A stretch of 12,292 bases of DNA from a virus (Duplodnaviria > Heunggongvirae > Uroviricota > Caudoviricetes): the IMG/VR virus record IMGVR_UViG_3300029060_000166; one strand, 5' to 3'. Made by a program: the position numbers and the translations under genes. How positions within the stretch are numbered: position 1 is the stretch's first letter; each line of letters begins with the position of its first letter. Positions 3,490 to 8,100 of this stretch are shown here, in pieces. The notes below the pieces were generated by a model. The model was given only the letters and a program-made list of their open reading frames with translations. It did no database searches and was not told where the DNA came from.

Positions 3490-4233
3490 ATGACACAGAC
3501 AGAATCAGCGATTCTGGCGCATGCCCGGCGGTGTGTGCCTGCGGAGTCGTGCGGCTTAGTGGTGAGAACGCCGGAGGGGGAGCGGTATATCCCTTGTGTG
3601 AATATCTCTGCAGAGCCGGAGGCGTATTTTCGTATTGCACCGGAAGACTGGCTGCGGGCAGAGATGCAGGGGGAGATTGTGGCACTGGTCCACAGTCATC
3701 CCGGTGGGCTGCCCTGGCTGAGCGAGGCTGACCGGCGGCTGCAGATAAAAAGCGCACTGCCCTGGTGGCTGGTCTGCCGGGGTGACATTCACAAATTCCG
3801 CTGCGTGCCGCACCTGACGGGACGGCGCTTTGAGCACGGGGTGACGGACTGTTACACCCTGTTCCGGGATGCATACCATCTGGCGGGGACTGAAATGCCG
3901 GATTTTCATCGCGAGGATGACTGGTGGCGCAACGGTCAGAACCTTTACCTGGACAATATGGCGGTCACCGGCTTTTACCGGGTGCCCCTGTCCTCTGCAC
4001 AGGCGGGCGATATTCTGCTGTGCTGCTTTGGTGCTTCGGTACCGAACCATGCCGCCATTTACTGCGGCAACGGTGAGCTGCTTCACCATCTGCCTGAACA
4101 ACTGAGTAAACGGGAGAGGTATTCCGAAAAATGGCAACGACGAACGCATTCTGTCTGGCGTCACCGCCACTGGCACGCATCTGCCTTCACGGGGATTTGC
4201 AACGATTTGGCCGCCGCCTCAGCCTGTATGTGA
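3490..4233 (+). CDS. K: Tail tip assembly protein K (247-aa ORF) with an N-terminal JAMM/MPN-type metalloprotease-like domain and a C-terminal NlpC/P60-like domain
   Basis: Starts MTQTESAILAHARR six nt after the L stop. A JAMM-type motif HSHPGGLPWLSEAD (H-x-H-x7-S-x2-D) is encoded at about 3691-3732, followed by a Cys-containing segment (GVTDCYTLFRDAYH) and downstream His, consistent with NlpC/P60. The 3' end overlaps I by 103 nt. The lambda reference annotation uses a shorter 199-aa K; the exact start is therefore uncertain, but the ORF is open from 3490. Confidence 0.88.
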   Translation: MTQTESAILAHARRCVPAESCGLVVRTPEGERYIPCVNISAEPEAYFRIAPEDWLRAEMQGEIVALVHSHPGGLPWLSEADRRLQIKSALPWWLVCRGDIHKFRCVPHLTGRRFEHGVTDCYTLFRDAYHLAGTEMPDFHREDDWWRNGQNLYLDNMAVTGFYRVPLSSAQAGDILLCCFGASVPNHAAIYCGNGELLHHLPEQLSKRERYSEKWQRRTHSVWRHRHWHASAFTGICNDLAAASACM

Positions 4234-4811
4234 ACACGGCAGCGGAAGCCATTCGCGCCCTGTCGATGCAGATGCCGGGCTTTCGCCGTCAGATGAACGA
4301 AGGCTGGTACCAGATACGTATTGCCGGTTATGACACGGCACCGGAGGCGGTGTACGCCCGTCTTCACGAACAGCTGGGTGAGGGAACGGTCATCCACATT
4401 GTGCCGCGACTGGCCGGGGCCGGAAAGGGTGGACTGCAGATTGTGCTGGGGGCGGCAGCCATCGTGGGCTCTTTCTTCACGGCCGGTGCCTCGATGGCGT
4501 TATGGGGTACAGCCCTGAGTGCCGGCGGTTTTTCTGCCACCACGATGCTGTTTTCACTGGGGGCCAGCATGATACTGGGCGGTGTGGCCCAGATGCTGGC
4601 CCCGAAGGCAAAAACACCGGATTACCGCGCAACGGATAACGGCAGACAGAACACGTACTTTTCCTCACTGGATAACATGATTGCCCAGGGGAACCCGATG
4701 CCGGTGCCTTACGGGGAAATGCTGGTTGGCTCCCGCCGTATATCCCAGGACATCAGCACCCGTGATGAAGGCGGGGGCGGAAAGGTCGTGGTTATCGGGC
4801 GGCAGGGGTAA
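4131..4811 (+). CDS. I: Tail tip assembly protein I (226 aa)
   Basis: Translation matches lambda gpI by recall (ARICLHGDLQRFGRR, VIHIVPRLAGAGKGG, NTYFSSLDNM, GEMLVGSR), including the Gly/Ala-rich hydrophobic C-terminal half. ATG at 4131 is preceded by GGGAGAGG; stop TAA at 4809-4811. Confidence 0.92.
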   Translation: MATTNAFCLASPPLARICLHGDLQRFGRRLSLYVNTAAEAIRALSMQMPGFRRQMNEGWYQIRIAGYDTAPEAVYARLHEQLGEGTVIHIVPRLAGAGKGGLQIVLGAAAIVGSFFTAGASMALWGTALSAGGFSATTMLFSLGASMILGGVAQMLAPKAKTPDYRATDNGRQNTYFSSLDNMIAQGNPMPVPYGEMLVGSRRISQDISTRDEGGGGKVVVIGRQG

Positions 4812-4856
4812 AAAGAATAAAAAAATCCCGCAGTGATCGCGGACAGGAACTGCGGG
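4811..4856 (-). terminator. Intrinsic (Rho-independent) terminator oriented for the minus strand
   Basis: GC-rich inverted repeat CCCGCAGT (4827-4834) / ACTGCGGG (4849-4856). On the minus strand it is followed directly by a U-tract (ATTTTTTTATTCTTTT, + strand 4811-4826). On the + strand the stem is preceded by A's and not followed by T's, so it is oriented for minus-strand transcripts. Confidence 0.6.
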
Positions 4857-4915
4857 AGAGTTACGAAGATTAAGTGTAAGGAATTATTCTTATATCACGA
4901 CAAAAAAATTAACGC
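4815..4915 (-). ncRNA. Candidate small noncoding RNA (~100 nt) bounded by a sigma70 promoter and an intrinsic terminator
   Basis: The predicted start is about 7 nt downstream of the minus-strand -10 box and the transcript ends at the 4811-4856 terminator. The span has no ATG and only 2-3 codon GTG/TTG frames, so it is ORF-less. It lies in an AT-rich insertion between I and J that is absent from the lambda reference layout. Confidence 0.35.
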
Positions 4916-4921
4916 AGAGAA

Positions 4922-4975
4922 ATTATACGCGCCACAGTCAGTTTGTGAAAATGTGAAGATATTCAGAATTTTTAT
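4922..4975 (-). promoter_or_regulatory. Near-consensus sigma70 promoter on the minus strand (-35 TTCACA, 16-nt spacer, -10 TATAAT) with an A/T-rich UP-like tract upstream
   Basis: Read on the minus strand: TTCACA (+ strand 4944-4949) matches TTGACA at 5 of 6; a 16-nt spacer; TATAAT (+ strand 4922-4927) matches 6 of 6. The upstream minus-strand sequence (+ strand 4950-4975) is A/T-rich (AAAAATTCTGAATATCTTCACATT). Confidence 0.5.
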
Positions 4976-5014
4976 GCCATTACCGGTTTTAACCAACAGG
5001 ATTATCGGTGGGCA

Positions 5015-5058
5015 TGAAAGAAAACCCCGGTATCTGCTGATACCGGGGTTTCTCTTTA
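5015..5058. terminator. Strong perfect hairpin with U-rich flanks on both strands; possible bidirectional terminator or insulator
   Basis: 12-bp perfect stem AACCCCGGTATC (5023-5034) / GATACCGGGGTT (5039-5050) with a 4-nt loop TGCT. It is followed by TTTCTCTTT on the + strand and by TTTTCTTTC on the - strand. Confidence 0.5.
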
Positions 5059-5154
5059 GCATGGCAGAAATGTGTTTCATGCTTTTCGGGCGAAGGATAT
5101 CCGACTTCTGTACGGAATGGCAAGTGGCGGTTAATTTATTCAGGGGAAGGCTGT

Positions 5155-8100
5155 ATGGGAAAAGGTGGCGGTAAGGCACACACGCCTCGTGAGGCGAAGG
5201 ATAATCTCAAATCCACGCAGATGATGAGTGTGATTGATGCGATTGGTGAGGGACCGATAGAAGGTCCGGTGAAGGGACTGCAGAGTATTCTGGTGAACAA
5301 AACCCCGCTGACGGACACGGACGGTAATCCCGTGATACACGGTGTGACTGCGGTCTGGCGTGCCGGGGAGCAGGAGCAGACACCACCGGAAGGCTTTGAG
5401 TCCTCCGGAGCTGAAACCGGACTGGGCGTGGAAGTGACGAAGGCAAAACCGGTGACGCGCACCATTACGTCCGCGAACATTGACCGCCTGCGGGTTACCT
5501 TCGGGGTGCAGTCACTGGTGCAGACCACGTCAAAGGGCGACCGTAATCCTTCCTCTGTCCGGATTCTGATTCAGTTACAGCGTAATGGCCGCTGGGTGAC
5601 GGAAAAGGATGTCACCATTAACGGCAAGACCACCTCGCAGTTCCTGGCCTCGGTGATTCTGGATAATCTGCCGCCCCGGCCCTTTAACATCCGGATGGTC
5701 AGGGAGACGGCGGACAGCACCACGGACCAGCTGCAGAATAAGACGCTGTGGTCGTCATACACCGAAATCATCGATGTGAAACAGTGCTACCCGAACACGG
5801 CCATTGTGGGGCTGCAGGTGGATGCGGAGCAGTTCGGCGGCCAGCAGATGACGGTGAACTACCATATCCGCGGTCGCATCATCCAGGTGCCGTCAAACTA
5901 TGACCCGGAAAAACGCACGTACAGTGGTATCTGGGACGGCAGCCTGAAACCGGCATACAGCAACAACCCGGCCTGGTGTCTGTGGGACATGCTGACTCAC
6001 CCGCGCTACGGCATGGGAAAACGTCTGGGGGCGGCGGATGTGGACAAGTGGGCGCTGTATGCCATCGGGCAGTACTGCGACCAGACGGTCCCGGATGGTT
6101 TCGGGGGGACCGAGCCGCGGATGACCTTTAATGCGTACCTGGCACAACAGCGTAAGGCGTGGGACGTTCTCAGTGATTTCTGCTCTGCGATGCGCTGTAT
6201 GCCGGTATGGAACGGCCAGACGCTGACGTTCGTTCAGGACCGTCCGTCGGATGTGGTGTGGCCGTACACCAACAGCGATGTGGTGGTGGATGATAACGGC
6301 GTGGGTTTCCGCTACAGCTCCAGTGCCCTGAAGGACCGGCACACGGCAGTGGAGGTGAATTACACCGACCCGCAGAACGGCTGGCAGACCTCCACGGAAC
6401 TGGTGGAAGACCCGGAAGCCATACTGCGCTACGGACGCAACCTGCTGAAGATGGACGCGTTCGGCTGTACCAGCCGCGGTCAGGCCCACCGTGCCGGGCT
6501 GTGGGTGATAAAGACCGAACTGCTGGAAACGCAGACGGTGGATTTCACGCTTGGGTCACAGGGGCTGCGTCACACACCCGGTGACATCATTGAAATCTGT
6601 GATAACGACTATGCCGGGACCATGACCGGCGGACGTGTCCTGTCCATCGATGCCGCCAGCCGTACCCTGACGCTGGACCGGGAGGTGACACTGCCGGAGA
6701 CCGGCACGGCCACTGTTAATCTGATTAACGGCAGCGGTAAGCCGGCGAGCGTGGCCATCACCGCACACCCCGCGCCTGACCGGATACAGGTCAGCACCCT
6801 GCCGGATGGTGTGGAGACATACGGTGTGTGGGGACTCTCCCTGCCGTCACTGCGTCGTCGCCTGTTCCGCTGTGTCTCCATCCGGGAAAACACGGACGGC
6901 ACGTTCGCCATCACGGCGGTGCAGCACGTACCGGAAAAAGAAGCCATTGTGGATAACGGGGCCAGCTTTGAGCCGCAGTCAGGCAGCCTGAACAGCGTTA
7001 TCCCACCGGCAGTGCAGCACCTGACGGTGGAGGTGAGTGCAGCTGACGGTCAGTATCTGGCACAGGCGAAATGGGACACGCCGCGGGTGGTGAAGGGTGT
7101 GCGCTTCAGTCTGCGTCTGACCAGCGGAAGCGGAGAAGACAGCCGTCTGGTGAGCACCGCCATCACCGCAGACACGGAGCACCGTTTCAGTGGTCTGCCG
7201 CTGGGGGAATACACCCTGACGGTGCGGGCCATTAACAGCTACGGCCAGCAGGGCGAACCTGCGACCACCACCTTCCGGATTAACGCGCCTGCAAAACCCG
7301 CCACCATTGAGCTGACGCCGGGGTATTTTCAGATAACGGCGGTACCGGTGCTGGCGGTGTATGACCCGACGGTGCAGTTTGAGTTCTGGTTTTCGGAAAA
7401 ACGCATCACGAACACGGCACAGGTGGAAAAATCTGCCCGTTATCTGGGGACCGGCAGTCAGTGGACTGTCCAGGGCGATCGGATTAAGCCGGGGATGGAT
7501 TTCTGGTTTTATGTGCGCAGTGTCAACCTGGTGGGCAAGTCTGCATTTGTGGAAGCCAGCGGGCAGGCCAGCAATGATGCAAAAGGGTATCTGGAATTTT
7601 TCCGTGGTCTGATAGATGAGACGCTGCTGGGGCAGGCACTGAAAGAGCGCATTGATGCTTCAGCGCTGCGTACGGAGGTCACGCAACTGGAAGAAGATAT
7701 CCGTCAGCGGATGGACACGGATATCGCAGAAGTGACCCGGAAAATCGGGAAGGCGGAAAACAGCCTCACGCAGCTGGTTGCGAAAAAGAATGAGGACCAG
7801 ACACTGGCCATCGCGCAGGTGAGCCAGAAAGTGGACCGGGTGAGCAGTGAAATCTCACAGACTGTCAGCCAGGGGCAGTCAGAAAACGCCCGACAGATAG
7901 CACAGGTCCGCCAGTACGTGGATAAAAAAGGGAGTGAAATTACCTCGACCACGGATAAAAAGCTGGGTGACCAGGCCGTGACCATACAGCAAATCCAGCG
8001 GGTTCAGTCAGACACGCGCAATGAGCTGAATGCCATGTATATGCTGAAGGTGCAGAAAACAAAAAACGGTATTCCCTATGTGGCCGGGATTGGCGCGGGG

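Follow-up and report, generated by a model that had tools for sequence, protein, structure and literature searches.

The window, by which we mean the whole analysed stretch of 12,292 nucleotides (IMG/VR record IMGVR_UViG_3300029060_000166), is the tail module of a prophage that resembles lambda, with the gene order H-M-L-K-I-J-lom-stf according to Pfam and the list of open reading frames. The genes for the tape-measure protein, M, L and K lie on the plus strand upstream of the tail assembly gene I (4131-4811, plus strand, Pfam Lambda_tail_I), and the tail tip gene J follows on the same strand (5155-8847, with Pfam J domains). Downstream of J is the Ail/Lom gene, lom (8915-9514, plus strand), and a side tail fibre gene is also present in the window. 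Strong plus-strand terminators stand at 8866-8885, after J, and at 9618-9647, after lom, which makes lom a classic moron unit within the same tail module. I and J are adjacent in phage lambda. In the window they are parted by a spacer of 343 bp, and on the minus strand of this spacer lies the predicted gene for a small RNA (sRNA) that is the subject of the present analysis. It lies antisense to the late transcription unit and wholly within its limits, and all the copies that we have seen stand likewise between I and J. The sequence from 4790 to 5170 is 100% identical in a large number of E. coli, for the most part extraintestinal, among them CFT073, S88, CE10 and ATCC 25922, and RefSeq annotates no feature in the I-J spacer. 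In CFT073 the predicted RNA corresponds to 1364148-1364244 of the chromosome, minus strand.

The sRNA promoter is composed of a -35 hexamer TTCACA (4949-4944, minus strand), which is the same in E2348/69, and a -10 hexamer TATAAT (4927-4922, minus strand), with 16 nt between them. It is close to the sigma-70 consensus, agreeing at 11 of 12 positions, and is the top promoter match that the scan gave in the 12.3-kb window. At the other end, the scan placed a minus-strand terminator at 4843-4827 plus ATTTTTTT, and RNA folding lengthens its stem to 9-11 bp, so that the hairpin occupies 4857-4826; the arms CCCGCAG and CUGCGGG are invariant in the alignment of alleles and the loop is variable. The hairpin is followed by a tail of seven U (4825-4819, minus strand), which has six to eight U in nearly all alleles and is the expected site for the proximal face of Hfq. 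Over the whole window, promoter-like matches (7 against 8.1 expected) and terminator-like matches (17 against 11.8 expected) are not enriched over shuffled sequences, and the case for the promoter-terminator pair thus rests on homology and conservation and not on the scan.

The predicted primary transcript of the window allele is 97 nt long and runs on the minus strand from G4915, a start placed 7 nt after the -10 hexamer, to U4819. When read directly it has no ATG, and its GTG and TTG codons open just two frames of two codons each. This agrees with a preliminary description of the same DNA, in which a minus-strand promoter-terminator pair was proposed to bound an RNA of ~100 nt without an open reading frame at 4815-4915, and all the features described there were found in place. 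The 5' limit of that interval is the same as ours, but the 3' limit was set about 4 nt too far, since the last U is at 4819. The terminator had also been said to abut the stop codon of I, and its U-tract does end 7 nt from it.

The preliminary description further held that the RNA could not be given to any named family from sequence alone. The gene does have homologs at the same position and on the same strand among sRNAs that have been detected experimentally. PasB (E2348CN_0006) is an 83-nt RNA transcribed from the minus strand of prophage PP6 in EPEC O127:H6 E2348/69 (NC_011601.1 1466343-1466261) and is listed between E2348C_1436 and E2348C_1437 (Pearl Mizrahi et al. 2021, PMC8550237 Table S6). 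The current record gives these two as the genes for tail assembly protein I and for J, with the 3' end of PasB lying 6 nt past the I stop. The northern probe for PasB matches the window at 4824-4846 in 20 of 23 positions, a match that was found in none of 200 shuffles. We also built a covariance model, R1, from nine alleles (PasB, PasB-2, the Sakai allele that equals EcOnc22, and six others), leaving out the window type. It gave a single match in the window, at 4915-4819, with model positions 1-94 of 94 covered, a score of 60.6 bits and E=7e-11; the next best score in the window was 12.9 bits. PasB and the window allele share the I-J spacer, the strand and the TTCACA-16-TATAAT promoter in register, and are ~90% identical over ~50 nt around the promoter. 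The U-run, the (AAN)3 tract and the AUCUU and UUAAUCUU cores are common to both, and the 3' half of the terminator (25 nt) is identical. In contrast, the body from the U-run to the terminator is only ~65% identical, with indels, the segment from UCCUU to UUAAUCUU is not the same, and the window allele has 5 nt more in its terminator loop. The spacer towards J is also of different length, 197 nt in the window versus 95 nt in E2348/69. The 5' end of PasB as mapped by RNA-seq, which gives the 83-nt RNA (PMC8550237), is ~15 nt downstream of the start predicted from the promoter, which points to processing of the RNA or else to an imprecise mapping. By analogy, the abundant species of the window allele may begin near 4900 and be ~82 nt long.

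A second set of homologs comes from EHEC O157:H7 Sakai, where EcOnc22, EcOnc23 and EcOnc24 are homologous Hfq-CRAC peaks in the prophages Sp15, Sp14 and Sp11, and EcOnc22 gives a northern band of ~85 nt that is destabilised in an hfq deletion (Tree et al. 2014, PMC4104026 Table S2). All three are in I-J spacers, opposite to the late genes, with a PasB homolog in each spacer. They have the AACUCCAUAACGUUAAUCUUC core and the terminator arms in common with the window allele, from which they differ in a shorter 5' part and in the variable segment and the loop. The published Sakai coordinates refer to an older version of the genome, and for this reason we calibrated the offset at two other sRNAs. 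AgvB, as located by Rfam at 1941920-1941981 in NC_002695.2, compared with the published EcOnc01a peak gives an offset of +137 to +146; this peak is printed as 1941783-1841835, for which the correct value is 1941783-1941835. For EcOnc42, the homolog from E2348/69 maps to 2924155-2924336 as against the published 2924036-2924118, an offset of at least +119. With an offset of ~+140, the EcOnc22 peak falls at ~2352-2421 of the Sakai locus L124 in our set, inside the predicted homolog at 2333-2428. We note for other users of these data that the EcOnc coordinates of Tree et al. 2014 between 1.94 and 2.92 Mb are offset by ~+137 to +146 nt from the current RefSeq record, and that a reader who takes them as printed is led to the wrong side of the promoter. 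Mapped with this offset, EcOnc22-24 and PasB very likely make up one family, a link that is mentioned in neither of the two Pas papers (PMC8550237 and the preprint of Zhu, Shabalina & Storz).

To describe the family we scanned IMG/VR with a 17-nt promoter word, which gave 120 loci; two of these were chance matches, one was interrupted by an IS element and two more were cut by contig ends. The terminator is present in every related IMG/VR copy that is uncut and uninterrupted (117, and the window). The interrupted locus (IMGVR_UViG_2534681940_000025, ~642-658) is broken just after the -35 hexamer by an apparent IS end, followed by the start of an open reading frame, and would amount to a promoter knockout made by nature. 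With the copies from Sakai, from E. albertii and from the references added, the allele set comprises 126 copies with 41 distinct promoter-to-terminator sequences. In all 41 the distance between the hexamers is 16 nt and A2 and T6 of the -10 hexamer are kept; the hexamer itself is TATAAT in 24, AATAAT in 15, GATAAT in one and a form with one base deleted in one. The comparison with related prophages that the preliminary description had proposed thus shows both promoter and terminator to be kept, the -35 hexamer excepted, whose conservation in the IMG/VR set is there by construction because the retrieval word contains it. In the Sakai copies the -35 has diverged to TCCGGC and the -10 is AATAAT, and as the RNA is detected in spite of the poor -35, the strength of the promoter cannot be read from the sequence alone.

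Within the transcript, conservation is concentrated in a few short elements. The first is AAG-AAU-AAU (4891-4883, minus strand), an (AAN)3 tract that is a candidate site for the distal face of Hfq; RNA positions 25-26, 28-29 and 32 are invariant, position 31 has an entropy of 0.17 bits and the third positions have ~1 bit. It is followed by the core UCCUUA-CAC-UUAAUCUUC (4882-4865, minus strand), in which CAC is the variable part, and which includes UCCUUACACUUAAUCUUC in the window allele. In this core AUCUU is invariant and UCCUU nearly so, and the three nucleotides between them are the most variable of the body. Other conserved features among the 41 alleles are a 5' GCGUUA, the U-run, the terminator arms and the U-tail. 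The remainder is a mosaic of at least three 5' modules and at least five terminator loops in different combinations, and several versions of the three nucleotides between UCCUUA and UUAAUCUU are recombined with the 5' modules and the loops. RNAalifold predicts the terminator as the sole structure of the family and no consensus structure over the UCCUUA-NNN-UUAAUCUUC core. A check for covariation across homologs, which had been suggested earlier, found none; all seven pairs of the terminator arms are invariant in 16 diverse alleles, and there is then no covariation to count. A candidate helix of 5 bp between the 5' GUUAA and UUAAU of the core has its pairing kept in 97% of cells, but only one pair is changed on both sides, which is equalled by 29 of 500 shuffles, and a short 5'-to-core helix is thus possible and weakly supported. 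An Hfq-dependent sRNA is usually built like this, with an A/U-rich body that is long and unstructured, a repeat of the ARN type and a terminator ending in a U-tail, following the rules of ARN repeats for the distal face and poly-U for the proximal face as cited in PMC4104026.

Between the sRNA promoter and the start of J there is always a strong hairpin, which reads as an intrinsic terminator in the late direction. In the window it lies at 5013-5062 and resembles a bidirectional terminator, having an A-tract at one flank and a U-tract at the other (fold z-scores -5.1 on the plus and -5.8 on the minus strand), with its core stem at 5025-5034 and 5039-5048, and it is part of the spacer cassette. 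Short spacer types have a different hairpin in the same place (L002 1431-1454; L124 2242-2265), which the scan scores as a late-strand terminator. The stems differ between spacer types by compensatory changes (GGCACC/GGTGCC, GGCATCC/GGATGCC and GGCACCC/GGGTGCC). In one copy, IMGVR_UViG_2671180417_000014, a deletion of 47 bp between two TTTCT direct repeats has removed exactly the hairpin and left the sRNA gene intact. There is also a weak promoter-like site, TTGCCA-18-TATCCT (5123-5094, minus strand, 9 of 12 positions), from which the hairpin with its UUUUCUUUC tail lies ~65-70 nt downstream. The segment 5015-5123 is nearly invariant in the long spacer type, and from its sequence it is conceivable that a second small minus-strand transcript is made there, from ~5087 to ~5015.

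The window allele is found in 800 of 5,426 complete E. coli genomes (~15%), with 613 records at 99% identity or more. The PasB type is found in 956 of the same genomes, and the Sakai type in 542, with a median of two copies. None of the family matches in these genomes has an annotation; the family is without an Rfam model, and RefSeq therefore leaves the sRNA unannotated. A scan of one genome per species with a strict promoter-gap-terminator pattern, by which diverged copies beyond Escherichia would be missed, gave E. albertii and two short contigs and no others. This range agrees with the reported restriction of PasB to Escherichia and Shigella. Typical PasB-family loci are present in a 460-bp contig of Parendozoicomonas haliclonae (NZ_FWPT01000051.1) and a 3408-bp contig of Streptomyces flavalbus (NZ_JBHTEB010000006.1), where they probably are contamination from E. 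coli or its prophages.

A survey of PasB has been made by Zhu, Shabalina & Storz 2026 (10.64898/2026.05.13.724894), who used the 83-nt sequence of E2348/69 as the query, with a word size of 28 and a coverage of >75%, and a query coverage of >50% as the filter for phages. The variants of PasB were reported to differ by just a few nucleotides, and PasB-2 of that study (position 27, C to A) is one of the sequences in our allele set (the L008 type). Run on the window allele, the published query gives no match at word size 28, and at word size 11 it matches the 25-nt terminator alone, with 30% coverage. The body is so diverged that the window allele is missed by the published BLAST criteria, and as these criteria are blind to diverged alleles the published distribution of PasB is an underestimate.

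We consider the element in the window to be an unannotated sRNA gene and a divergent member of the PasB / EcOnc22-24 family, acting in trans with the help of Hfq, and would give this reading a probability of about 0.8. The gene is a self-contained, moron-like cassette, furnished with a sigma-70 promoter and an intrinsic terminator, which has presumably been inserted inversely between I and J in the tail gene cluster of a lambdoid prophage. With a promoter of its own, it could be active in the lysogen even when the late operon is not expressed. Its product would bind Hfq through the 3' U-tail and the upstream (AAN)3 tract, the contact sites being predicted from the known rules, and would then pair through UCCUUA-NNN-UUAAUCUUC with mRNAs encoded by the host or by other accessory elements. 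The window allele is accordingly best described as most likely a lysogen-expressed, Hfq-dependent, trans-acting base-pairing sRNA, by comparison with what is known of its relatives. The earlier suggestion that it is a prophage sRNA gains much from the I-J homologs on the same strand, which have been seen on northern blots (83 nt in EPEC and ~85 nt in EHEC) and are Hfq-bound or Hfq-dependent. PasB has been validated by northern blot and RIL-seq and depends on Hfq for its stability; its level is higher in the non-activating condition, it ranks 15th by number of RIL-seq interactions, and more than 67% of its partners are CDS or 5'UTR regions, of both core and accessory genes (PMC8550237). The seed of PasB has been placed just upstream of the terminator (Zhu et al., 10.64898/2026.05.13.724894), and the conserved single-stranded core would be the natural seed in the window allele. 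Since the window allele differs from PasB in the middle of this core, and its body is just ~65% identical with indels, it may have other targets. We found no mutation-validated target of PasB in the literature searched. When the seed was compared with the rest of the late strand in the window, the best duplex had -19.8 kcal/mol, weaker than the mean of -22.3 kcal/mol for the best duplexes of shuffled seeds (n=15), and so gave no signal of a target in the window.

The RNA could instead, or in addition, be an antisense regulator that acts in cis on the late operon, through RNase III cleavage between I and J or through transcription interference, and that sets the level of J or damps leaky late expression. 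Its sequence is the perfect complement of the late mRNA at the I-J junction, the RNA comes from inside the late unit with a promoter that fires head-on into late transcription, and the constant I-J position and the late-strand terminator-like hairpin that always accompanies the sRNA would also fit such a role. However, the RNA ends 7 nt short of the coding sequence of I, and its 5' end is ~240 nt (window) or ~140 nt (E2348/69) from the start codon of J, too distant for a ribosome-binding site to be covered. Pure antisense pairing would moreover allow an even spread of conservation, which here is focused in (AAN)3 and the short core, and the homologs are abundant in uninduced lysogens and form Hfq-dependent chimeras with many unlinked mRNAs (PMC8550237). 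A cis role, which can coexist with one in trans, seems to us rather unlikely; the preliminary description had left the choice between the two open, and the RIL-seq data for PasB would favour trans. An action on sRNAs is less probable still. An anti-sRNA, or sponge, like AgvB and AsxR would use the variable segment as a mimic of an mRNA site and titrate an sRNA of the core genome, and the conserved 3' module, the variable upstream segment, the ARN repeats and the prophage location are indeed as in AgvB and AsxR. But no Rfam family, these two included, matches at the gathering score or at E<=10, and the position among tail genes differs from the moron site downstream of PR' where AgvB and AsxR are found. 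PasB, for its part, qualified as an ordinary sRNA by the RIL-seq criteria and has the mRNA partners mentioned above (PMC8550237); in the two rows of the sRNA block that were covered its only partner is an intergenic RNA beside pasA, which is not a core sRNA.

It might also be asked if the spacer makes any functional RNA. A promoter and a terminator could persist in an inert remnant through recent, near-clonal spread of the tail module, and the spacer of the window type is almost invariant, with 51 identical copies of its upstream part besides the 613 near-identical records, so that purifying selection is inseparable from recent spread within this type. Across diverged and recombined alleles, however, the promoter spacing, A2 and T6 of the -10, the AAN periodicity, AUCUU, the stem and the U-tail are all fixed, and two other alleles are expressed (PasB, PMC8550237; EcOnc22, PMC4104026), which leaves little probability for a remnant. 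Least credible of all is a small protein encoded by the spacer on the late strand. The window does have an open reading frame at 4833-5174 (plus strand), and ON416862 and ON470597 annotate a protein of 66-77 aa in the spacer as 'hypothetical' or 'tail fiber'; these calls (484-684 in ON416862.2, 451-684 in ON470597.1) correspond to ~4940-5174 of the window, plus strand, and overlap the start of J. The frame matches no PHROG family, includes the sRNA promoter and a highly stable hairpin, and has an ATG at 4973 that is without a Shine-Dalgarno sequence. The segment is absent from short spacer types that keep the sRNA, RefSeq has no annotation there, and the gene call in the two records is probably spurious.

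Returning to the family as a source of trans-acting sRNAs, the shuffled alleles invite a wider hypothesis, which we put forward only tentatively and hold to be possible but on balance doubtful: that the I-J spacer is the site of one widespread Escherichia sRNA cassette with fixed promoter, Hfq elements and terminator, in which a few nucleotides within the seed, and the 5' module, are shuffled by recombination to give pathotype-specific regulons. If this were true, the targets of the ExPEC version (CFT073, S88, CE10, ATCC 25922) would differ from those of PasB in EPEC, and the published surveys would have overlooked both the window allele and the EHEC alleles. Apart from this, an unannotated element that in the window allele alone reaches ~15% of complete E. 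coli genomes now has a name and a function class with an experimental ground. Three literatures, on PasB in EPEC, on EcOnc22-24 in EHEC and on an ExPEC allele that has no name, apparently deal with one family, for which an Rfam model is warranted. The ExPEC allele is suited for target mapping because it often is the sole Pas-type sRNA of ExPEC strains. In the literature that we searched the window (ExPEC-type) allele is undescribed, and a full-text search with the terminator sequence found no paper that contains it; the family would thus be larger and more modular than published.

As to other named sRNAs of pathogenic E. coli, PapR and C271, Hfq-bound sRNAs of UPEC UTI89 (PMC4546395), could be set aside, as their probe and cloning-primer sequences are absent from the window, and sRNA-17 of NMEC RS218, in an mEp460-like prophage, was judged on its length only, 193 nt being a misfit. 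PapR, EcOnc08/21/42 and the intergenic sRNA of E2348C_1409-1408, all outside the window, seem to form one family; the cloning primers of PapR (...CGGGCTGAAGTCCGGAAGTT and the reverse complement of TCTCCCAGCGCGGGCTTTTTTT) are the 5' and 3' ends of a sequence of 182 nt. This PapR-like sequence is found at NC_002695.2 2924155-2924336 (656-837 of our locus L131) and at NC_011601.1 1444797-1444978 (298-479 of L134).

The kind of element that we describe is already known, since PasB and EcOnc22-24 have been detected experimentally, and its novelty is modest, with no new mechanism. The preliminary description had advised a search against Rfam, which gave 0 matches for the whole window at the gathering score and nothing meaningful for 4700-5250 at E<=10 (the search finds AgvB in Sakai at 96.5 bits), and a comparison with published prophage sRNA sets, which is where PasB (PMC8550237) and EcOnc22-24 (PMC4104026) were matched. 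AgvB and AsxR (RF02702, RF02703) are like the family in being short, prophage-borne and Hfq-binding, in the conservation of the 3' module as against a variable segment upstream of it, and in their ARN repeats. They are unlike the window sRNA in that they have no sequence or structure match to it, measure 51-60 nt and have sRNAs, not mRNAs, as their targets; their setting, a convergent sRNA pair downstream of PR' and a moron gene, is not the one in the window, which is a tail module. The closest parallel to the arrangement of the gene is that of the lambdoid morons, which as summarised in PMC4104026 (after Juhala et al. 2000) have their own promoter and terminator, stand between conserved late genes and can be expressed from the prophage. 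The cassette in the window differs from a classic moron in that its cargo is non-coding and that it is inverted relative to the late operon.
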